Positions 21,273-39,363 of a stretch of 64,000 nt of DNA are shown here, one piece after another; position 1 is the stretch's first letter; every line of letters starts with the position of its first letter. Below the pieces are notes generated by a model, which ran no database searches, was not told where the DNA came from, and worked only from the letters and a program-made list of their open reading frames with translations. Origin of the DNA: a bacterium (GTDB lineage: Bacteria > Cyanobacteriota > Vampirovibrionia > Gastranaerophilales > JBAXKC01); NCBI GenBank assembly GCA_037137535.1, contig JBAXKC010000007.1:1-64000 (forward strand), written 5' to 3'. A program made the position numbers and the translations under genes.

Positions 21273-21482
21273 ATGTATATAATTGAAATTATAGCCAAAT
21301 TTCTACAAAATCGCAAAGAAAAAAAACAACTGAATATAGATTTGGATGAAGAACTTGAAAGCTGCGAACATATTTATGTTGCTATAGATAGCTCGAAAAC
21401 CTATCTGGCCTGTTACAAATGCGGAAATTTAATAGAAAATAATGGTGAAATAAAAATTAACAAAAATCCTTTCAGTCTTTAA
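21273..21482 (+). CDS. Small hypothetical protein, possible Zn-binding
   Basis: AAGG RBS; CEH...CYKC. Confidence 0.55.
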   Translation: MYIIEIIAKFLQNRKEKKQLNIDLDEELESCEHIYVAIDSSKTYLACYKCGNLIENNGEIKINKNPFSL

Positions 21483-21483
21483 A

Positions 21484-22266
21484 TTATGGATAAATTCTTG
21501 AAAATTGTGAAAAATATTGAGCTAATACATTCATAAGCAGCGGCATTGTTAAAATCAAAACAGCTATTCCTAAAACAGGCTTAAACATTGCACTTAACTG
21601 AAATACGTTAACCTGAGGAGCAGTTTTTGAAACTATACCTAAAATAACATCCATAGCAAGCGTTGCCATCAAGACGGGAGCTGAAAGCTGCATTCCTACA
21701 ATAATTACGTTAGAACTTACCATTATTAAATAATCAAGATTCATTAAAGTTTTTAATGGAAAAGCAACACCATATATCGGAAAAATCTCGAAACTTCGCT
21801 GAAAAGCCGCTATTAACCAGTATATGCCTCCTTCTTCAATAAAAATAAGAACAGACAAAAAGGTAAAGGCCTTACCGATAATAGAAGTTTGACCTCTTGA
21901 ACTCGGGTCAAACATTACAGCAGAAGATAATCCCATCTGCATGTTTATAATATCCCCTGCCGAGCCGACAGCTGACATAATAATAGTTCCAATAAGCCCA
22001 ATAATAGCCCCAACTCCGCTATTTAGCAAAATAGAAAGAAACATTGAATTATGAGGTGGAGGATTTGACGGGTTTAAAATACTAACAAAACAAATTGACA
22101 TTAGAAAAGTAAATCCCATTTTAAGCATGAAGGGAACGTCTTTACGGCTAAAAACAGGAGCTGTAGACACAAAACCAAGAAATCTTGCCATAATGTAAAG
22201 CCCTGCTTCAGTTTTCATACTGAATTCAGGAAAGTTTTTAAATACGCTAAGAAAATTTTCTAACAT
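21484..22266 (-). CDS. fliR: Type III export-gate protein FliR/SctT
   Basis: ARFLGFVSTAPVF, AGDIINMQMGLS..MFDP, GIVSKTAPQVNVF; start at MLENF, adjacent to the upstream stop. Confidence 0.92.
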   Translation of the reverse strand: MLENFLSVFKNFPEFSMKTEAGLYIMARFLGFVSTAPVFSRKDVPFMLKMGFTFLMSICFVSILNPSNPPPHNSMFLSILLNSGVGAIIGLIGTIIMSAVGSAGDIINMQMGLSSAVMFDPSSRGQTSIIGKAFTFLSVLIFIEEGGIYWLIAAFQRSFEIFPIYGVAFPLKTLMNLDYLIMVSSNVIIVGMQLSAPVLMATLAMDVILGIVSKTAPQVNVFQLSAMFKPVLGIAVLILTMPLLMNVLAQYFSQFSRIYP

Positions 22267-22267
22267 T

Positions 22268-22693
22268 TCACTTTGCCTTAAATTGTGGTGGTTGGTCAAT
22301 AATCATATTATCATTTAGCTTTAGCGGTTTTAACGGAGGCTTATCTATTTCTATCAAAGAAGCTTCATTATTCTTCTTTATCTGTTTTTGTTTAGTTATC
22401 AGTATTTTATAAATATACAAATTTGTTTTTGTCCAAACAATAAGATTAGTATCTTCCGCCTGCATTGCCGAAATAATCAACTCATAATCATCATTAAATA
22501 TTTTTGTATTTTGTTCAACCTTTAGAGCTTTTGCATTTCCAACTTCAATTTTTTTAAAGTTTTCAGAAAATTTTAAAATGTAAACATCACCTTTGTTAAT
22601 TTTAATTTGCTTAAAAACCTCACTTCTTACTGAGTTTAAAGGCATAAATATTGCTAAAAATAAGATTATAGCCGTAATAACAAAGTTTTTCAT
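22268..22693 (-). CDS. Secreted stand-alone pilus-secretin N-terminal domain (T2SS-T3SS_pil_N-like)
   Basis: Signal peptide, then KGDVYILKFSENFKKIEVGN...ELIISAMQAEDTNLIVWT, which aligns by eye to GKSQLIRFNEPVKRISLTN...ELLLNGKTAGLTSLIIWG of the secretin at 34365..35726. Confidence 0.75.
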   Translation of the reverse strand: MKNFVITAIILFLAIFMPLNSVRSEVFKQIKINKGDVYILKFSENFKKIEVGNAKALKVEQNTKIFNDDYELIISAMQAEDTNLIVWTKTNLYIYKILITKQKQIKKNNEASLIEIDKPPLKPLKLNDNMIIDQPPQFKAK

Positions 22694-22703
22694 TGTTTAC
22701 CTC

Positions 22704-23198
22704 TTATCGTTGAGAGTAAATTCTTCTTGCTTCCGCCATATTCGCACCTACTGAAGGGCCAACATTGGCTTTTCCGTAAGACTCTTTTAGCTTCTTATCA
22801 GAATAAGGCACTTTTCCAGGATGTTTCATCATAGTATCAACATCAGGACGTTTTATAAAACGAAAATCCTTTTCATCTTCATAAAATGGACGTGTTTTCC
22901 CCGGAGGTTCGGGAGCAAGGGCGTAATCACCCTGCTTTGGAATAACTTGAAGCGCCAAATGTATTGAATCTTCAAGGTATTCTGATAATATTTGTGTAAA
23001 AAGCCTACCCATCATTACAATTACGAGGAAAACAGCAAGAATTTTAGGAGCAGCTGCGATTGTTTGTTCCTGTACCTGCGTTACCGCCTGTAATATCCCT
23101 ACTACAAGACCTATACCTGCCGCAACAAGCACAACAGGCATTGAAATAATCAATGTCGCAACAAATCCTTTGGCTAGTTGTTCAAAAAGTAAATCCAC
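22704..23198 (-). CDS. fliQ: FliQ/SctS with a long C-terminal extension
   Basis: PVVLVAAGIGLVVGILQAVTQVQEQTIAAAPK; 164 aa. Confidence 0.9.
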   Translation of the reverse strand: MDLLFEQLAKGFVATLIISMPVVLVAAGIGLVVGILQAVTQVQEQTIAAAPKILAVFLVIVMMGRLFTQILSEYLEDSIHLALQVIPKQGDYALAPEPPGKTRPFYEDEKDFRFIKRPDVDTMMKHPGKVPYSDKKLKESYGKANVGPSVGANMAEARRIYSQR

Positions 23199-23217: not shown

Positions 23218-23859
23218 TTAATTGAAACTTTGGACGAGATTAGTGACTATAAGCCCCCATCCGTCAATTGCAACAAATATCAATAATTTAAACGGTAACG
23301 AAATAATGGTAGGGGAAAGCATCATCATACCCAGAGCCAGCAATATATTCGCAACCACAAGGTCAATGACGACGAAAGGTATAAATATCAAGAAACCAAT
23401 CTCAAAGGAGGTCTTTAATTCACTAATGATGTATGCAGGAGCTACTTCAAAAATACTTATCTCCGTAATATCCTTAGGTGGAGTTTTTCTCATTAATTTG
23501 ATAAAGAAAGCAACGTCTTTTTCACTGGTCTGCCTTAACATAAATCGCTTAAGGGGCTCAGAACCTTCCTTTATGGCTAAAGGCAGCGATCCAGTCTGAA
23601 CATAAGGTTTATTGCCCGCGTCATACATCTGTTGAAAAGTAGGCCCCATTGTATAAAAAGTCAAAATTAGTGATAAACCTATAATTACCATCCCCGGCGG
23701 AACTTGCTGTGTACCAAGAGCCGTTTTAAGAATTGAAAATACAATAGTAAATCTTAAAAAACTGGTCATACAGACAAAAACAAATGGCAACAAAGAAAAA
23801 ATCGCCATCGTTATAAGTAGCTGAATAGCGGGATCTAATGTTTTTAGCGTCTGGTCCAT
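23218..23859 (-). CDS. fliP: FliP/SctR lacking an N-terminal signal peptide
   Basis: MTSFLRF..LGTQQVPP, PAYIISELKTSFEIGF, GMMMLSPTIISLPFKL..DGW; 213 aa. Confidence 0.95.
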   Translation of the reverse strand: MDQTLKTLDPAIQLLITMAIFSLLPFVFVCMTSFLRFTIVFSILKTALGTQQVPPGMVIIGLSLILTFYTMGPTFQQMYDAGNKPYVQTGSLPLAIKEGSEPLKRFMLRQTSEKDVAFFIKLMRKTPPKDITEISIFEVAPAYIISELKTSFEIGFLIFIPFVVIDLVVANILLALGMMMLSPTIISLPFKLLIFVAIDGWGLIVTNLVQSFN

Positions 23860-23873
23860 ATTATCTCCTGAAA

Positions 23874-24281
23874 TTATTTTCGATTAATAAAATTCTTTAA
23901 CATATTACATAAAGGATTTTGCGGATTATTAAAATTTAAAAGCTCTTCCATTGGAAACTCTTTTAAAGGAAGTTTTTCATCTATTATTTGATTTTCCCCT
24001 TGTTGAATTTCAACTTGTTGAGGAATATTATTATCATCAAGTTTAGTCAGAAAATTTATGTTATTTAAATCACTTGATACTAAAAATCTTTCATTGCCTG
24101 CTTTAACAAGATAAATTGATTTTCTTGGTTCAAGAGGTAAAATTCCTTCAAGTTCAAGAAATCCGTTTTTCATTTTATTTGTTGAAAATTGTAAGGTTTT
24201 TTTAGCGATAACTATGGCAACAAAAATCAAGCCCATCATTGCCAGCATATACACTATAAAGCCTGTTAAGTGGTGATACAT
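23874..24281 (-). CDS. fliO: FliO-like protein
   Basis: N-terminal TM, then LPLEPRKSIYLVKAGNERFLVSS...INFLTKL; directly upstream of fliP. Confidence 0.75.
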   Translation of the reverse strand: MYHHLTGFIVYMLAMMGLIFVAIVIAKKTLQFSTNKMKNGFLELEGILPLEPRKSIYLVKAGNERFLVSSDLNNINFLTKLDDNNIPQQVEIQQGENQIIDEKLPLKEFPMEELLNFNNPQNPLCNMLKNFINRK

Positions 24282-24292
24282 ATTTATTTTCC

Positions 24293-25501
24293 CTATAAAT
24301 CATCATCAATTTCAAAATCACTATAATCAAAATCAGAATCATCCATTTCTTCGAGGTTAATCTGTTCGCCCTCACCCATATTTTCTGAATAATCCTCATT
24401 TGACGGTTCTTCTTGTTCCGGTTCAGCTTGTGGCTTAGGATCATGATAAACCTTATTTATCTTAACTCCATATTTATCGCCTATTATAACAAGTTCACCT
24501 GATGCAATCTTTTTACTTTCAACGCTTAAAGTTATTTCGTTTCGCACAATAGGTGCTATATCTACAACAAGACCTTCTGAAATTTGCCTTAATTCGCCAA
24601 GAGTCATTTTTATCTTTTCAAATTCGGCAGATACATCCACCTGAAGGCTATCCCATATATCTTGAATTGAACGCTGTTCCATGTCAGTCATTTCAACTTC
24701 GTCCTCATCATCAATATCCACAACAATAGAAGGATTAGGGTTTACATTAAATAATATAGGCTCATGTGCCAATATTGTCATTTGATTTAAATTACTATTC
24801 TCTAATATTATATAATCATCCGACTCAAGATTTTTTATTCCTTCGAGCGTTATTTTTGATTTTCCTACATAAATACTAGCCATAGTAGCACTTTGTTCAA
24901 ATTGCATAATATCCAGCAAGTCATTTTGCTCTTCAATATATTGTACTTGCTTATAAATAAATTCAGGGAATGATATTACTAACTTCCCCACACTTTCTTC
25001 CTCATGTTGTTCTGAATAAAGAGAAAATGTTAAATGAAGCATTTTTTTATAATTGCTGCCCTGTGATATAAATTTTAATGCTTTTTTTCCGGAAAGAAAC
25101 AATTCTTTAAAATTTTTAAAAAGATACTCAATATAAACTGTTAAAATTCGGCTTTCCAACTTTGTTATATCTTTTATTCGAATTTCTTCAAACGTTCCGT
25201 TTTTTCCACCAAGAGAATTATACAAAACAATACCGGCGGCATCGGACGAAATTTTAAAAGTAATAGCGCATTTATCATTAAGGCTTATTTGAGTAACAAA
25301 AAACTCTTCACCTTTCCAAATATTATCATTAGAAGTCATTGAGATCAGCTTAAAATATAAATTCGCATTAAGAATAGAATGACTTATTTCTTGTAAAGAA
25401 GGGCAAAATGCATTTTCAAACATGGTAAAACTGCGGCTATAATCAAGATGACCACTATATCCGTCACTTTCTATATGATAATTATGCTGAGAACTCGTCA
25501 T
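24293..25501 (-). CDS. FliM/FliN-family C-ring protein with two SpoA domains (SctQ-like)
   Basis: SIYVGKSKITLEGIKNLESDDYIIL and VSAEFEKIKMTLGEL...IASGELVIIGDKYGVKI; GGAG RBS before MTSSQ. Confidence 0.85.
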   Translation of the reverse strand: MTSSQHNYHIESDGYSGHLDYSRSFTMFENAFCPSLQEISHSILNANLYFKLISMTSNDNIWKGEEFFVTQISLNDKCAITFKISSDAAGIVLYNSLGGKNGTFEEIRIKDITKLESRILTVYIEYLFKNFKELFLSGKKALKFISQGSNYKKMLHLTFSLYSEQHEEESVGKLVISFPEFIYKQVQYIEEQNDLLDIMQFEQSATMASIYVGKSKITLEGIKNLESDDYIILENSNLNQMTILAHEPILFNVNPNPSIVVDIDDEDEVEMTDMEQRSIQDIWDSLQVDVSAEFEKIKMTLGELRQISEGLVVDIAPIVRNEITLSVESKKIASGELVIIGDKYGVKINKVYHDPKPQAEPEQEEPSNEDYSENMGEGEQINLEEMDDSDFDYSDFEIDDDL

Positions 25502-25568
25502 TTTACTCCGCCCGACACTATGCATTCTTTAATTTTAATGATGATATAAAGACAGTAAACCCCTAATA

Positions 25569-28159: not shown

Positions 28160-29635
28160 ATGAAGAATATAACATCAAGACCACAAATCATTTTAAATAC
28201 TAATAATTGGGCAAAAAGAAAAAATCTGAACGTATCAAGTTCAGAAACACTTACTGAAAAAAATTATGACTTGAATTTTAAAGGAAACCCTTTTGCCATT
28301 TTAGGTCAAATATTTCAACCTTCTATTAAAAAAACTGCTGCAAATATGAACGATGTTGCTTTTTTTAAAGAAATTATCGAAAAAATAAAGCTCACCACAA
28401 AAGGTAATGATACCTTAGAAAAACTTATTGAAGACAGTTTTCATAAAATTGATAAAACTAAAGTTACTGATCCCTTTGAATATATTTTTTCTGAATTACA
28501 CAAAGGAATAGAAAAAGCAGAAAAACATCTTCAAAAGGCGAATGAAAGCAAAAACATAAATGATTACAGAAAAGCCGAACATTATTATAAAATATCGGCA
28601 AATTATATAGATAAATTAAATAAAAATATAAACAATCATACAATTAATTCTAAGAATGGAGTATCAGTTTCAAATTTACGAGATAATTTTAAAATTTCAA
28701 ACTTATGCAATAACTTTATTGAAAAAACAAATCAAAAACAGATTGAATGCAGAAATAATATCTTTAAAATAAATATTTCGCCGGAAGCTTTAGCTCAAAC
28801 AAACGCACAAGAAACAGCAAAATATAAAGCTATTAAAAATGGCAATGGTTTTTATCGAATGACAGAACAATTAATTGACGGGCAGAGGATAAGCATGTAT
28901 TCAAACCAAAGAATGACTTATACCAAAGAAGGTGTGCCTATTCCTTATAAAAATTTCAAAAAAGGACTCACTACTTTTGTTGTTGACTTAAGCAAAGATA
29001 ATCAGTTAAAAAAGAACTTAGATTTTTTCAATAATACCATTTTGGCTTTTGAAAAATTAAAAGGAAAAAATTTAGACGATTTAGAAAAAATCAAACATTT
29101 ATGTTGCACGATGAAACAAATATTCCCTGAAAAAGGTTATATTCAAAATAACAAGGGGGAAACAGTTAATTTACTAACTTGGAGCAATAAACATGTGCCA
29201 CATAGAGACATACTTCTTGGAGAATTTATTTCAGGAACTAAAGACGGAATAAGACCAGGTGAAGCCGTTTGTCTTCAACAGTCAATGATTGCCAAAGTTT
29301 TTGGTGAAAATAACGGAATGAATGTTGATTTAATAATCAATAAAGATCATGCATGGACAGAAATAAAAAGTAAAAATGGAGACAAATTTTTATTTGATCC
29401 AAGAGCTGGAATCATAGCAGATTTTAAAAATGCAACTATATACTCTTATGATTCATATTTTGGAAGCATTGAAACATATGACAAAGACTTTATTATCAGA
29501 ATGATTGAATACAAAAACAATAAGCCCTTAACTCCTGATTTCAAGCAAAAGGTTACTAATAAAGAATTACTTAGAATGTATTTAAGTTCTATTTATCAGA
29601 ATGAAGTCGGAAAATCTATCTATGATAAAATATAG
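28160..29635 (+). CDS. Orphan protein with LNFKG motif and C-terminal transglutaminase-like Cys-His-Asp core
   Basis: GEAVCLQQS...DHAWTEI...FLFDP. Confidence 0.65.
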   Translation: MKNITSRPQIILNTNNWAKRKNLNVSSSETLTEKNYDLNFKGNPFAILGQIFQPSIKKTAANMNDVAFFKEIIEKIKLTTKGNDTLEKLIEDSFHKIDKTKVTDPFEYIFSELHKGIEKAEKHLQKANESKNINDYRKAEHYYKISANYIDKLNKNINNHTINSKNGVSVSNLRDNFKISNLCNNFIEKTNQKQIECRNNIFKINISPEALAQTNAQETAKYKAIKNGNGFYRMTEQLIDGQRISMYSNQRMTYTKEGVPIPYKNFKKGLTTFVVDLSKDNQLKKNLDFFNNTILAFEKLKGKNLDDLEKIKHLCCTMKQIFPEKGYIQNNKGETVNLLTWSNKHVPHRDILLGEFISGTKDGIRPGEAVCLQQSMIAKVFGENNGMNVDLIINKDHAWTEIKSKNGDKFLFDPRAGIIADFKNATIYSYDSYFGSIETYDKDFIIRMIEYKNNKPLTPDFKQKVTNKELLRMYLSSIYQNEVGKSIYDKI

Positions 29636-33127: not shown

Positions 33128-34363
33128 CTACTTTCCGTTTTTTGTTAGTCTGCTTAAAAAAGGTGATATAGACTTCATACTAAATAAGCTTTTATTCTTT
33201 TTAGCCTTTCCTTGAAATTTATTGTCTCTTACTATAACAGAATTACTCAACAATGCGGCTAATTCCATAAAACTTTGACTAATATTAGAATTAGGGTCAA
33301 TTTTAGAAATAGGAACACCTCTGTTAATAGCAGACATTACGGACAAGTAATTATTAGGAAACTTCCAATATACAGAATGCCCTAAAGCATCTTCAACATC
33401 TTCAACCGTAATTTCTTCATTAGGCATATAACGGTTGATAATCAACTTTACTTTATCTTCGTTATAATCAAGCCTGTTAAACAGGTCAATACATCTTTGA
33501 GAGTTTCGTATAGTAGGAAGATTTACCATTGAAACCAGAAGAATATTATCCGAGTTATCAAGTGAACACAGCGTTTTACTGTCAAAATTACTGCTTGTAT
33601 CAATAATTATGTAGGAAAAAACTGATTTTAATATACTGAGAACAGTATTAATCTGCTCAGAGGTAATTTCCTCAGCCTGCTCCAAATATGGAGGGTCTGC
33701 GAGTATATACAAATCTTTATCTTTATATTTTTCAAGAGTGCTTAGAAGAAATGACTCATCAACCCTGTTTAAATGAGTAACAACATAAGAAATATCAAAA
33801 GAAGGAGAAATATCCAAAAAGGTTGTCACATCGCCAAGTTGAAGGTTCAAATCAAGTAAGGCCACTTTTTTACCTGTAAGATCCGCAAGACTCACCGCAA
33901 GATTAGCGGCAATTGTAGTTTTTCCAATACCACCCTTGTTGCTGAAAACTGTTATTATTTTGCTCTGATGTCTTTCTTCATTATCAACATTAATAATGCT
34001 TTTAGCCTTATCAAGTGCATTTTTAAGCTCGTTTGTCTGAATTGGCTTTGATAAAAATTCTCTTGCCCCTGCTCTCATTGTCTTTAAAACAATATCTGTA
34101 CTTACATCAGACGAAGTTACAAAGATAATAGTGTTTTTAGCTTGAATAGAAAGTTTTTCTATTACTTCAAGAGCATACTCTTCATTATCAGATATATCAA
34201 TAATCGCAACAGACGGTTTGTCCTGAATAATAGCATTATAGCCTGCGACTAAAGTATTATAATCTCCGATGACTTTAACATTTGGCATTTCATCTAAAGT
34301 GCTTTTTAGTATTGGGCTTTGATCCTCAAAGCTGTCAACCACTATCATTGAGATTAAATCCAT
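33128..34363 (-). CDS. cpaE: CpaE/TadZ (receiver-like domain plus MinD/ParA-like ATPase)
   Basis: MRAGAREFL receiver-like domain, KGGIGKTT, DLNLQLGD; GGAGAGG RBS. Confidence 0.9.
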   Translation of the reverse strand: MDLISMIVVDSFEDQSPILKSTLDEMPNVKVIGDYNTLVAGYNAIIQDKPSVAIIDISDNEEYALEVIEKLSIQAKNTIIFVTSSDVSTDIVLKTMRAGAREFLSKPIQTNELKNALDKAKSIINVDNEERHQSKIITVFSNKGGIGKTTIAANLAVSLADLTGKKVALLDLNLQLGDVTTFLDISPSFDISYVVTHLNRVDESFLLSTLEKYKDKDLYILADPPYLEQAEEITSEQINTVLSILKSVFSYIIIDTSSNFDSKTLCSLDNSDNILLVSMVNLPTIRNSQRCIDLFNRLDYNEDKVKLIINRYMPNEEITVEDVEDALGHSVYWKFPNNYLSVMSAINRGVPISKIDPNSNISQSFMELAALLSNSVIVRDNKFQGKAKKNKSLFSMKSISPFLSRLTKNGK

Positions 34364-34364
34364 A

Positions 34365-35726
34365 TTATAAGCCCTCTCCTGAAACATTGGAATCGATAAT
34401 TCTAGGAGTTACAAATATTAAAAGCTCTGTTTCATCTTTTCTTATATCAGATCTCTTAAAGAAATTACCTATAATCGGTATATCGCCTAAAGTAGGGATT
34501 TGGTCTTTTGATGAATTATCTGTTCTTTTCAACAGTCCCGCAATAACAAGAGTCTGACCGTCCATTAACTGAACAGTAGTTTCAGCTTTTCTTGTTTTAA
34601 ATCCGTAAATTTTTGAATTTTGATTTGTAACAGTTACGGTAGAATCTATTTCACTTACCTCAGGAATTATATTTAATGAAATAAGTTTTGATTCAGGCTG
34701 TATAGTAGGGGTAAAAGTAACATTTACACCTGTATCTTTATATTCATAAGATACATTTCCGCCTTCACCGATACCGCTTGGAACAGGAACTTGATAACCT
34801 GCGTTAAAACTGGCTTTATTGCCATTTGTCGAAACAAGTTTAGGCTCTGCAAGTATTTTAACAAGACCTTTTTGCTCTGCCATACTTAAAGCAGTACTTA
34901 CGCTTTGAGAATTAAATCCAAACCCTCTTAATCCCTTTGAAATATCCGGCTCAAAAGACATACCGTATTGATTCCCCGATATTGCCGTAGCAGCACTTGG
35001 AATAACACCAAATGTAAAATTATCAGCATATCTGCTTAATGCGAAACTTGAACTTATTATTTTTGTAAACGAACGAGCAGCTTCTGTAACTTTAACTTCA
35101 AGTACAATTTGAGGAGTTTTACATTCAGAAAGATCAACAAATTTATAGCCGTATGCTTCAGTTATACTTTTAATTTTATCTCTTACAATAGAAGAAGAAA
35201 CATTTCCTGCAAGTATAACATTTTCAGAATTAGTAAATTTTAAATCCACTTTTTCATTCGGATATACTGATCTGACAGCTTTTAATAAAATAGTAGGATC
35301 ATTTTTAATATTCAAATCAAAGAAAACAGGTTCACCTGTTTCTCCCCATATAATTAAACTTGTTAAGCCTGCTGTTTTACCGTTTAAAAGCAATTCATTA
35401 GGCGAAAGCATTATTATATCGGCAAGTGAAGGATTTGTTAAAGATATTCTTTTTACAGGCTCATTAAATCTTATAAGCTGAGATTTCCCCACAAAAGCAG
35501 TCATTTCAGAAATACTACCTTTTAAATCAGCGTTAACTTTTTCCGTAGGAGTAAAAAAGGTATCAGAAATTTTTCTGGAGGCTTTATCATCAATAGACAA
35601 AGGAGAAAGATTCATTTCTCTAAGCTGTGGAGCAGCATCAGCATTAACCGACTGCGAACAAGAGAATAAAAGCGCAATTGATAACAAGCCAAATATTATA
35701 TTTTTTTTCTGATAATTATAGTTCAA
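34365..35726 (-). CDS. cpaC: Tad secretin CpaC/RcpA
   Basis: Signal with lipobox-like LFSC, pil_N domain, ILAEPKLV...ASFNAG, TLVIAGL, IPTLGDIPIIGNFF..ETELLIFVTP. Confidence 0.92.
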   Translation of the reverse strand: MNYNYQKKNIIFGLLSIALLFSCSQSVNADAAPQLREMNLSPLSIDDKASRKISDTFFTPTEKVNADLKGSISEMTAFVGKSQLIRFNEPVKRISLTNPSLADIIMLSPNELLLNGKTAGLTSLIIWGETGEPVFFDLNIKNDPTILLKAVRSVYPNEKVDLKFTNSENVILAGNVSSSIVRDKIKSITEAYGYKFVDLSECKTPQIVLEVKVTEAARSFTKIISSSFALSRYADNFTFGVIPSAATAISGNQYGMSFEPDISKGLRGFGFNSQSVSTALSMAEQKGLVKILAEPKLVSTNGNKASFNAGYQVPVPSGIGEGGNVSYEYKDTGVNVTFTPTIQPESKLISLNIIPEVSEIDSTVTVTNQNSKIYGFKTRKAETTVQLMDGQTLVIAGLLKRTDNSSKDQIPTLGDIPIIGNFFKRSDIRKDETELLIFVTPRIIDSNVSGEGL

Positions 35727-36871: not shown

Positions 36872-37208
36872 TCATTTAGGCTTATTATTCTTAATTTTAT
36901 GCCTATGTTTATGAAATTTTTTAGAGTGTTTCTTTTTATGGTGTTTTTTCTTTTTAGTATGTTTTTTAGGTTGTTTTGGCTTTAAAATACATGTTTTACA
37001 AGAATGAGCATTAAATAATTGTTCTGCTTCATCTCTTGTTGTTACGACACAATTAGAACAATACGAAGCCGTGACGACCATCAATTTTATGATAAATTTT
37101 ACTATCCAAATTTAAAGCAACATCTTCTGCAAAACTAAAATTGCAAAGACATCAGTGCAAGATAATAATCGCAAATAACTTATTAAGCTTTAATAGAGTA
37201 ATTTTCAA
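36872..37208 (-). pseudogene. Disrupted secreted Cys-rich (Ada-Zn-binding-like) protein with Lys/His-rich tail
   Basis: TTG start reads MKITLLKLNKLFAIIILH*CLCNFSFA-EDVALNLDSKIYHKIDGRH, then a +1 shift near 37070 into ASYCSNCVVTTRDEA...CKTC. Confidence 0.55.
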
Positions 37209-39363
37209 GTTTTATACCCTCTTTCACTCCTAAGACACAATATATTTTTACAGCATTATCTTTTCCTTTAACTTTACATTCATCAAGATATTGAGTGTTT
37301 ATATACTCCTTGACTTCGTTGTAAGTCGTTTCACTGATAATAATATTCGTTTTATATTCCTTATTAAGCCCCTCAAGACGGGAAGCGAGGTTGACATTAT
37401 CACCTACAACAGTATAATCAAGCAATCTTGGCGAACCCATATGACCAACAATCATATCACCGGTATTTATGCCTATACCGATATCTAAAACATGCTTACC
37501 TTCTTCAGCCCATTTTTTATTTAAGAATTTTAATGACTCCATCATGGAAATAGCCGTTAAAACAGACCTTAGAGCATGGTCTTCCATCGGTAAGGGATCA
37601 CCATAAAAGGCCATAATTGCATCGCCAATATATTTATCTAACGTTCCATTATGCTTTAATATCACTTCGACCATTTCAGTCATATATTCATTCAACTGTG
37701 AAATAAGTTCATGAGGCGGTATTTTCTCTGAAAGAGTAGTAAAACTTCTAATATCAGAGAATAAAACCGTCATATACTTTCTTTGACCTTCTCTGGATAC
37801 ACTTTTAGGGTCTTTTAATAATTTATCAAGAACCTGAGGAGAAACAAACTTTCCAAACAAGTTTTCTATTTGCTGTTTATCCTTTTTCTCTATATGAATT
37901 TTATATAAGTATGTCCCAATGGAAGAAACGGTCATTAATATTAGCGGATAGGTCATATTCACCCATATTCTGATCTGAGGATGGGCAAAAAGAATAAGAG
38001 CCAATATTATAAAAAAGAATACAACAAGGAAAAAACCTGCAAGACTAAGCAAATTAGAACGAGCTTTAATAATAAAAATAACAATTGCCGCACAAAACAA
38101 TAATGAAATCATAAAATTTGTTATAAAATCGGCTTTTTTTATAAAATTCCTTGAAGAATTACTATTTTTAAGAGTGTCATGAAGCAAATTATCAATACTT
38201 GTAGCAATTATTTCCGTCCCGGGGTAAACCATGCCCATTGGAGTAGGATGAAAATCAGTACCCGGTGCTGTTTGACCTATTACAATTATTTTATCCTTAA
38301 AAAAGTCAGAGGTTATTCTATCACTTGGATTAATTTTATTAATTTTACCTTTTTCAAAAGCTTCGGAAATCAAAACTTTAGAAATAGAAATATTTTTATA
38401 AGCAGAAGCTTTTCCATGCCAGTTAATAAGAAGTTTCCCCTCTTCATCAATAGGAATTATTCTGTTTTTTGATTCAATTCTGTCTTGATATAACTTATAG
38501 GAAGCGTTTTCATCTTTGTCTGACAAGGCAATAACCGTTGCCAAAGGAAGAGATGGGATATACTGAACACCTTGACTCTTCGCCAATCTGTATAGTGGCT
38601 CATGCACTCTGGCAACAAGGCTGTCACCAGACTTCAGATTAATAACACCCAAAGAATGCGAACTTGCTAAAAGCTCGGGGCTTATAGCACTATTTCCGTA
38701 AAAAGTAATATTATTAAGTAAATTTTGAATATTTTTATCAGTAGAAGGTAACTCCTGTATCGATTTGTCATCAATATTTAATGTTAATGCTTTTTTTAAT
38801 GGAATTGATGAAATATTTAACTGCTTATAAACATAACTATCTAAATTATTATTAGAAAATTTTCTTTGCTTAGTTAAATCGTTAACTTCCTTGCTGATTG
38901 ACTCTCTTGGATAAGATAAGGCAACTCCGAGAATTACGTTTTTATGTTTTTTTAAAACATCCGCCATATATTTATCAGAATAAACACTCTTAATATCATT
39001 GCCTTCAGAGCCTTCAAACTTTATATCAAAAACTATTGCCTTAGGCTTACCCTTATTAATAAAAGTTATTACATCTCCCCAGGTTTTTCTCGGCCATGGC
39101 CACCTTCCAAGAGCAAGTTTAGGATATTGCATCAATTTATCATTTGTAGACTGATCATCCGTCAGTAGAATTATATTATTATCGGCTTTTCTGAATTTAG
39201 AACTAAAAGGCCCTCCATCAACAGAGATTTGAGCTCGCCAATCATACATAATGCTTTCAATATTATTTAAAAGGTCTTTAATACCTGCAAACCAGCTTAT
39301 TCCGATTATCAGAACACAAGCAAAAACCACCAACATATTGCGGAAGAAATAATTATCACGCAT
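37183..39363 (-). CDS. CHASE2-domain class III adenylate/guanylate cyclase
   Basis: RWPWPR CHASE2, three TMs, VLFSDIRSFT, DKYIGDAIMA, YTVVGDNVNLASRLE. Confidence 0.93.
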   Translation of the reverse strand: MRDNYFFRNMLVVFACVLIIGISWFAGIKDLLNNIESIMYDWRAQISVDGGPFSSKFRKADNNIILLTDDQSTNDKLMQYPKLALGRWPWPRKTWGDVITFINKGKPKAIVFDIKFEGSEGNDIKSVYSDKYMADVLKKHKNVILGVALSYPRESISKEVNDLTKQRKFSNNNLDSYVYKQLNISSIPLKKALTLNIDDKSIQELPSTDKNIQNLLNNITFYGNSAISPELLASSHSLGVINLKSGDSLVARVHEPLYRLAKSQGVQYIPSLPLATVIALSDKDENASYKLYQDRIESKNRIIPIDEEGKLLINWHGKASAYKNISISKVLISEAFEKGKINKINPSDRITSDFFKDKIIVIGQTAPGTDFHPTPMGMVYPGTEIIATSIDNLLHDTLKNSNSSRNFIKKADFITNFMISLLFCAAIVIFIIKARSNLLSLAGFFLVVFFFIILALILFAHPQIRIWVNMTYPLILMTVSSIGTYLYKIHIEKKDKQQIENLFGKFVSPQVLDKLLKDPKSVSREGQRKYMTVLFSDIRSFTTLSEKIPPHELISQLNEYMTEMVEVILKHNGTLDKYIGDAIMAFYGDPLPMEDHALRSVLTAISMMESLKFLNKKWAEEGKHVLDIGIGINTGDMIVGHMGSPRLLDYTVVGDNVNLASRLEGLNKEYKTNIIISETTYNEVKEYINTQYLDECKVKGKDNAVKIYCVLGVKEGIKLENYSIKA

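Follow-up and report, generated by a model that had tools for sequence, protein, structure and literature searches.

In a 64,000-nucleotide (nt) stretch of a Gastranaerophilales genome (GenBank assembly GCA_037137535.1, contig JBAXKC010000007.1, positions 1 to 64,000; hereafter the window), the export-gate genes fliQ and fliR are separated by a gene, here called X (22268..22693, minus strand), which encodes a stand-alone protein of 141 amino acids (aa) that is predicted to be exported and resembles the N-domain of secretins (pil_N). Our analysis confirmed that the insertion of X between fliQ and fliR is real, old and widespread. The surrounding operon belongs to a second flagellar-type apparatus (set 2), distinct from the canonical flagellar genes (set 1), and X is classed here as a stand-alone pil_N protein of the CpaI kind that has entered an operon of flagellar type. 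The reading that we favour, tentatively and by analogy with CpaI of the Tad machine, is that X would be a dispensable, fast-evolving periplasmic connector of the set-2 machine.

The position of X was read directly from the DNA. The fliQ stop codon (TAA, 22706..22704) is followed by 10 nt that include AAGAGG and then by the X start codon (ATG, 22693); by inspection AAGAGG is a Shine-Dalgarno sequence (22700..22705, minus strand), which overlaps the fliQ stop codon. The X stop codon (TGA, 22270..22268) lies 1 nt from the fliR ATG (22266), and this fliR start (MLENF...) agrees with the starts of its orthologues in the locus comparison. The original prediction, made by a model from the letters alone, had given the same distances and had taken X to be part of the operon; from the short gaps and the Shine-Dalgarno sequence, X is indeed a predicted member of the fliQ-fliR operon. 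The N-terminus of X, MKNFVITAIILFLAIFMPLNSVRS followed by EV, looks by eye like a Sec signal peptide (residues 1-24, 22622..22693, minus strand: MK, a hydrophobic core, then VRS/E), and the AlphaFold2 (AF2) model has a helix at residues 3-16. The signal-peptide call combines this inspection with a simple heuristic, by which 58 of 59 members of the X family have an N-terminus of this type. A lipoprotein reading was ruled out, as the signal peptide holds no cysteine, and a foreign origin was dropped because base composition gave no signal (G+C content: X 26.5%, fliO 27%, window 31.6%). A scan for promoters and terminators was uninformative, with 26 sites against 24.3 expected and one terminator against 2.2 expected.

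According to the run records the genome comes from freshwater metagenomes, and an identical 367-nt contig spanning most of X was present in a second sample of the same study. In a metatranscriptome of the likely source sample, in which DNA carry-over is possible, contigs of low depth were found at 23926..24121 (fliO) and 24522..24716 (the fliMN-like gene); the library covers only these two genes of the operon and does not cover X. These contigs are a weak hint, subject to the possible carry-over, that the operon is transcribed.

The domain assignment was examined with family profiles, profile-profile comparison and structure. Pfam PF13629 (T2SS-T3SS_pil_N) matched residues 29-93 of X with an expect value (E) of 4.6e-5 and 23.5 bits against a cut-off of 23, and with 24.3 bits in a six-frame search of the genome; in the whole 2.95-Mb genome the family has two matches only, X and the window's own Tad secretin CpaC (gene 34365..35726; pil_N domain 35313..35495, minus strand, 61-65 bits). 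BLASTP aligned residues 35-95 of X with residues 80-135 of CpaC at 25% identity (E 0.001). Among 24 X orthologues, 10 matched PF13629 at E≤0.01, mostly below the cut-off, and no other family recurred. When the X family alignment was compared by hhalign with 15 CpaC N-domains of the class, a probability of 94.7% was obtained (E 5.9e-8, 78 columns), and the X profile itself picks up the pil_N part of 15 CpaC-like open reading frames (ORFs) in the class. The pil_N call is borderline on the single Pfam score and solid when the whole family is used. The likeness to the CpaC N-domain behind a signal peptide, which had been proposed by eye, is thereby borne out, as is the match to the T2SS-T3SS_pil_N model.

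The AF2 model of X, computed from the 24-row alignment, had a predicted local distance difference test score (pLDDT) of 85 and a predicted template modelling (TM) score of 0.64. It shows a seven-stranded beta-sandwich of the pil_N or VirB9-N-terminal-domain type over residues 28-100 (22394..22612, minus strand), with strands at pLDDT 83-98, and a further strand at residues 113-116. Among the structure neighbours in the ESM Atlas are pil_N domains of CpaC-type secretins, at a TM by query of 0.49-0.55, as well as a cluster of stand-alone pil_N proteins of 145 aa. Foldseek, the structural check named in the original prediction, gave the N-terminal domains of VirB9/TrwF as the best solved neighbours (E 2.2e-4 to 8.8e-4; 7o3t_B at 2.2e-4), and an exhaustive structural aligner placed Xanthomonas VirB9 first (6gyb_b, Z 8.3, root-mean-square deviation (rmsd) 2.6, 84 aligned). 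The NCBIfam VirB9 model TIGR02781 matched X at E 1.1e-4 over the N-domain only, with 22 bits against a cut-off of 217.7, and CagX (PF03524) reached 14.7 bits against 34.2. By Pfam, X has no PF00263 secretin domain, the genome's three secretin matches lying elsewhere; no flagellar family appeared among its Pfam and NCBIfam matches. A search of the X profile against the sequences of the PDB returned nothing (best E 0.99), and no solved pil_N structure was found by sequence. A Pfam match to BCAS3 and the ESM Atlas feature matches (0.84) were set aside as below a useful level. Since Pfam, the family profile, hhalign and the structure neighbours agree, homology of the X domain to the secretin N-domain is well supported.

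In the 24-row alignment the signal peptide of X precedes a beta domain of some 70 aa, and a conserved h-x-h-D-x-P motif lies at the C-terminus; its residue D117 is the same in every row. In X the C-terminal strand and motif read LIEIDKP (22337..22357, minus strand), and the motif was present in 54 of 59 family members.

The distribution of X was determined in 401 genomes of the class. A six-frame search with the single X sequence matched 30 genomes and gave 29 loci besides X itself. Of these, 21 carry fliP-fliQ, with fliR wherever the contig reaches that far, and in all 21 a signal-peptide ORF lies between fliQ and fliR; it is 115-150 aa long, apart from two large genomes of another order, in which it measures 215+ and 375 aa. 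The remaining eight loci (L037, L039-L045) lack fli genes and were discarded as matches arising by chance. A search with the family profile matched 63 genomes, 48 of them with a true X (E≤7.8e-12), while the other 15 gave weak matches on the pil_N part of CpaC-like ORFs of 436-914 aa. An in-frame stop was found in four of the 48, and these copies may be decaying. The true X genes belong to the window genome, to 43 of the 188 genomes of family f2 and to both sampled genomes each of f3 and f4. Within a single genus, 13 of 35 genomes carry X. None was found in the other families of the sample, though f7, f11 and f13 have set 2; there fliQ abuts fliR. With X in 48 class genomes, the fliQ-X-fliR order is not unique to the window genome; uniqueness would have undone the original prediction.

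Outside this sample, a search for loci with the long fliQ of set 2 confirmed 589, whose titles are mostly Gastranaerophilales, Melainabacteria or Cyanobacteria, and the best 80 named loci were scored. The slot between fliQ and fliR held a clear X in 35 and a divergent relative, X2, in 13; in 30 the gap was ≤30 nt with no gene, and in two the contig ended and the slot could not be scored. The slot is thus occupied in 48 of the 78 scorable loci. The locus titled MEL.A1 (L136) has no gene in the slot. Six metagenome-assembled genome records (L076, L086, L089, L094, L098 and L132) carry the Melainabacteria-type set-2 operon under the titles 'uncultured Gammaproteobacteria' or 'uncultured Muribaculaceae', and these titles are probably wrong.

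A tree of FliP and FliR was built from 103 rows and rooted on families that lack X. The rows comprise the window, 76 of the 80 named loci, 18 of the 21 loci that had been found through X, which biases the tree towards X, and six outgroup loci; two of the five gut loci that carry X are included, plus the three that lack it. X occurs in the basal ingroup rows, and its presence and absence require 10 changes on the tree, at least nine of which cannot be avoided given the branches with good support in the careful run; the count under a mixture model was likewise 10. X2 forms a single clade (97/73). X has been passed on vertically together with the set-2 operon from a time before two orders split, and the most economical account is that it was gained once, early, and lost about nine times afterwards. 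Among the 48 X-bearing genomes, 21 also have a FliQ of the set-1 type and 27 have the set-2 type only, by a heuristic on FliQ match patterns that was checked directly in a few genomes. X is independent of the true flagellum.

The window also holds a Tad block, and the original prediction saw in X a periplasmic adaptor between the export gate and the secretin, as well as its strongest internal evidence that the fli and Tad blocks cooperate. Across the 401 genomes CpaC-type secretins were marked by a PF13629 match at E≤1e-5. No such match was found in 45 of the 48 X-bearing genomes, which are 96-99% complete, and X occurs together with a CpaC-type match only in the window genome and in two f4 genomes, where the two genes lie on different contigs. 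Conversely, in 14 genomes of f2, the sister family, CpaC is the sole pil_N match and X is lacking. In all 21 fli-bearing loci and the 48 slot-occupied named loci, X sits in the fliQ-fliR slot, never in a tad locus, and the 20-kb loci of five relatives, extending some 7-12 kb to each side of the operon, yielded no Tad gene. In the window the two blocks are about 4 kb apart, split by two opposite-strand genes, a histidine kinase and an ORF of no known family. This adjacency is particular to the window genome, because the relatives' loci hold no Tad genes and the f4 genes are on separate contigs. X is independent of the Tad secretin. The distribution of X and CpaC contradicts the proposed link to the Tad secretin, and these results do not support the cooperation of the two blocks; a periplasmic adaptor is still plausible by analogy with CpaI. 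As the Tad block has no CpaI-type gene of its own (PF13629, whole genome), it is possible that X moonlights with CpaC in this one genome.

The X family is large and diverse. A profile search of 1.84 billion proteins returned 292 clusters (50% identity), of which 136 reach E≤1e-10 and most measure 110-150 aa, whereas a word-index homologue search with X had found one relative only. Identity is 22-31% between genera and 50-65% within one genus. The ratio of nonsynonymous to synonymous substitution rates (dN/dS) was 0.16-0.39 in the seven of ten pairs for which it could be computed, with dS near saturation. X2, a divergent branch of the family, is a signal-peptide ORF of 127-199 aa that matches X by hhalign with a probability of 87.5% (E 3.6e-6). 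It has two invariant cysteines and, in most rows, an ETYTY motif, and some members carry a Pro/Ala-rich insert after the signal peptide; its 13 holders are one clade of gut Gastranaerophilales (L078-L082, L085, L099, L104, L105, L121, L122, L129 and L138). Long forms of 375-599 aa (L020:700-1827, minus strand; P0032, P0034, P0042, P0060, P0061 and P0084), which include those of the f4 order, have a low-complexity, disordered Pro/Lys/Glu-rich linker and a C-terminal DUF4352-like immunoglobulin (Ig) sandwich. The Ig domain of a long form resembles 3fbq_A (Z 11.2) and YcdA (Z 10.9), and the N-domain of a long form resembles TraK of the F plasmid (7spb_C1, Z 9.4, rmsd 2.8, 87 aligned). As modelled, the long forms would fit an envelope-spanning tether, a fit that proves nothing.

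The operon that holds X runs fliMN-like, fliO, fliP, long fliQ, X, fliR, all on the minus strand, with gaps of 11-19 nt between the genes up to fliQ. Its first gene (24293..25525) encodes a FliM/N-like (SctQ-like) protein of 410 aa (PF01052, E 3.1e-16; the NCBIfam FliN/SctQ models stay below cut-off) and is followed by fliO (23874..24281; PF04347, E 4.7e-9), fliP (23218..23859; PF00813, E 9.9e-71), fliQ (22704..23198, 164 aa; PF01313 over residues 8-75, E 1.8e-19) and, beyond X, fliR (21484..22266, 260 aa; PF01311, E 1.5e-50). Beside fliR and convergent with it lies a Cys/His-rich ORF of 69 aa (21273..21482, plus strand), which by tblastn recurs next to fliR in L077, L080, L081, L085, L087, L129 and L138 and may be a conserved small zinc-ribbon-like protein.

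The same genome carries set 1, in which fliP, fliQ (89 aa), fliR, flhB and flhA follow one another in canonical fashion on a different contig. Set-1 genes were located on contigs C3, C36 and C15, and set-2 genes on C7 (the window), C13 (L056) and C21 (L057). One further set-2 contig encodes two FlgF/G-like rod proteins, FlgB, FlgC, an SLT transglycosylase, FliE and FliF, together with a 313-aa ORF in the FliG position, FliH, FlhA and FliI, and another encodes FlhB and a sigma factor. The 311-aa and 313-aa ORFs of set 2 gave no SAF/CpaB-like match. The window FliP is 59-70% identical to the set-2 FliP of relatives, including three other families, and 42-47% identical to set-1 FliP; the genome's own two FlhA proteins are 37% identical. 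Set-2 FliQ has a conserved C-terminal tail of about 75 aa (22704..22960, minus strand), with motifs such as NPGK-P-[FY] and a basic C-terminus, that is absent from the 86-89-aa set-1 FliQ and extends to about 290 aa in two loci of another order. The tail has the same form with or without X (L017-L036, L051-L055, L061-L066). Four more ORFs of 467-599 aa, extra to the two full-length FlhA proteins, match only the cytoplasmic C-terminal half of FlhA (FHIPEP ~270-655; C2:107894-109006, C34:584-1639, C27:25255-26343 and C60:3211-4173; L005-L008).

Set 2 also stands by itself in other genomes. In five gut relatives with a single FliQ, this is of the long-tailed type within a fliMN-fliO-fliP-fliQ-(X)-fliR unit, and set 2 was the only FliQ-type set found in these five non-flagellated relatives. 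In three of them, examined for this, a FliE-FliF-ORF-FliH-FlhA cluster is present, and the FlhA encoded there shares about 75% identity with set-2 FlhA. Neither flagellin nor FlgI was matched in any of the four gut relatives tested; the window genome has seven flagellin matches and one FlgI match. FliQ was found in every one of the 188 genomes sampled from the main gut family, the set type having been confirmed directly in a few. On its gene content, set 2 is predicted to be a full paralogous basal-body and export apparatus, and in flagellated species it coexists with the true flagellum.

In the literature, as far as the accessible parts of the sources go, the machine of gut Melainabacteria is treated as an 'incomplete flagellum'. 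Those parts report that complete flagellar sets occur only in some Gastranaerophilales, with 'a subset' in the rest (Soo 2014, PMC4040986), that MEL.A1 is without a full flagellar set (Di Rienzi 2013, PMC3787301), and that about 25% are flagellar-complete while the rest keep flhB, fliI and flgG with a 'postulated' secretion role (10.64898/2026.04.24.720558). Neither a pair of paralogous sets nor an insertion between fliQ and fliR comes up in the same parts of these three texts, supplements excluded. The second flagellar-type machine merits more attention than X itself, and should set 2 prove to be a functioning device for secretion or in the envelope of common, uncultured gut bacteria of animals, X would offer a way to find what it connects to.

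The closest described parallel to X is CpaI of Caulobacter, a periplasmic signal-peptide pil_N protein that, in the available portions of the reports (10.1101/2025.11.06.686991, PMC13170226), is required for Tad assembly. There, CpaI is modelled as a bridge: the C-terminal hairpin of CpaB packs on the CpaI sandwich, and the C-terminal strands of CpaI pack on the N-terminal sandwich of CpaC in a way likened to donor-strand complementation. A role for stand-alone pil_N proteins has emerged only recently, that of CpaI in bridging the outer- and inner-membrane halves of the Tad machine. Compared with CpaI as described there, X likewise has a signal peptide, a single pil_N sandwich, a C-terminal strand and no secretin domain; it differs in lying in a fliPQR-type operon instead of a cpa/tad locus and, mostly, in a genome without a CpaC-type secretin. 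The N-domain of the Tad secretins (CpaC/RcpA) is homologous to X by hhalign and the Atlas matches; X, however, has neither a BON nor a secretin domain and would be a free periplasmic protein, not an outer-membrane channel. The N-domains of VirB9, TrwF and TraK, from the type IV secretion system core, are the nearest solved folds and build periplasmic rings, but X lacks the C-terminal domain of VirB9, scores far below that family's cut-off and has no type IV secretion context. Flagellar motors have lineage-specific periplasmic scaffold proteins, and injectisomes have recruited a secretin. X resembles both as a predicted Sec-exported add-on, a secretin-system module in a flagellum-derived machine, and differs from the injectisome secretin in being only an N-domain.

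Taking into consideration that (i) X shares the layout of CpaI and (ii) the N-domains of VirB9 and TraK build rings, we read X as a putative connector or ring element. It would sit in the periplasm at the set-2 basal body, where its sandwich would accept a strand from one partner and its C-terminal strand with the h-x-h-D-x-P motif would dock onto another partner or onto the next copy of X; this donor-strand role is an inference from CpaI. In this way X would link the complex of the inner membrane to some structure in the periplasm, the peptidoglycan or the outer membrane. Its loss from many lineages suggests that it would modulate or stabilise set 2 and not be essential. A pil_N module fixed in a fliPQR operon, free of a Tad secretin, would mean that a flagellar-type machine has reused a connector domain. 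A more far-reaching version, which as a whole we regard as improbable, sees in set 2 not a decaying flagellum but an envelope machine in its own right, derived from a flagellum and without a filament, whose simplest use would be secretion. X would then be a secretin-N-domain module, captured early, that couples the basal body through donor-strand complementation with a partner in the peptidoglycan or the outer membrane. If true, a flagellar type III apparatus would here have borrowed, independently, a component of a secretin system, parallel to the injectisome secretin.

Several observations weigh against X as a connector. X is absent from 30 of the 78 scorable named loci and from set 2 of the three other families, and because of these absences the machine must work without it. 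Between genera X is 22-30% identical, against 60-70% for FliP, and a passenger would look alike; the dN/dS pairs that speak for constraint are nearly saturated in dS. In the structural comparison, generic Ig-like domains follow at Z 7-8, close behind VirB9.

Among the alternatives, the one that survives best is that X assists assembly, as a chaperone or cap that would bind the periplasmic face of FliP/FliR, or the FliQ tail, and leave after the gate has been built. The gene lies exactly between those of two gate subunits, from which only 10 nt and 1 nt separate it; the operon also includes fliO, which is known to help assemble the gate, and loss in many lineages suits a helper. However, the FliQ tail keeps its form whether or not X is present, and the homologous domains of secretins, CpaI and VirB9 are ring or bridge elements rather than chaperones; we consider this role unlikely.

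The rapid divergence and the roughly nine independent losses that count against a connector are what would be seen if X were a passenger, a fast-evolving exported Ig-like protein of the adhesin or envelope kind that uses the operon for its expression and has no part in the machine. The long forms, whose disordered linker and DUF4352-like Ig domain typify envelope or surface proteins, agree with this, and the fold of X is a common sandwich. Such a passenger sits poorly, however, with the retention of X in one exact slot, very close to both neighbours, from before the divergence of two orders, with the very divergent X2 keeping that slot, with a dN/dS below 0.4 and with a specific homology to the pil_N domains that build machines, and it seems to us slightly less credible than the assembly factor. 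That X is a CpaI-type adaptor of the Tad machine, or joins the export gate to CpaC and makes one apparatus of the two blocks, is very improbable: the homology of X and the CpaC N-domain, the binding of CpaI to the pil_N sandwich of CpaC (as modelled in the accessible parts of the reports), the position of X and CpaC as the genome's sole PF13629 matches and the closeness of the blocks speak for it, but they are outweighed by the X-bearing genomes without CpaC, by the 14 f2 genomes in which Tad manages without such a protein, by the constant fliQ-fliR position of X, by the Tad-free loci of the five relatives and by the separate contigs in f4.

Three further features were noted in and around the Tad block. 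Between the fli and Tad blocks lies an ORF of 491 aa (28160..29635, plus strand) that belongs to no Pfam or NCBIfam family, and its C-terminal ~100 aa recur at eight other places on seven contigs with 29-37% identity. The CpaE/ParA-like ATPase of the Tad block (33128..34387, minus strand) has an N-terminal response-regulator receiver domain, and a gene for a CHASE2-adenylate/guanylate cyclase (37183..39363) adjoins the block.

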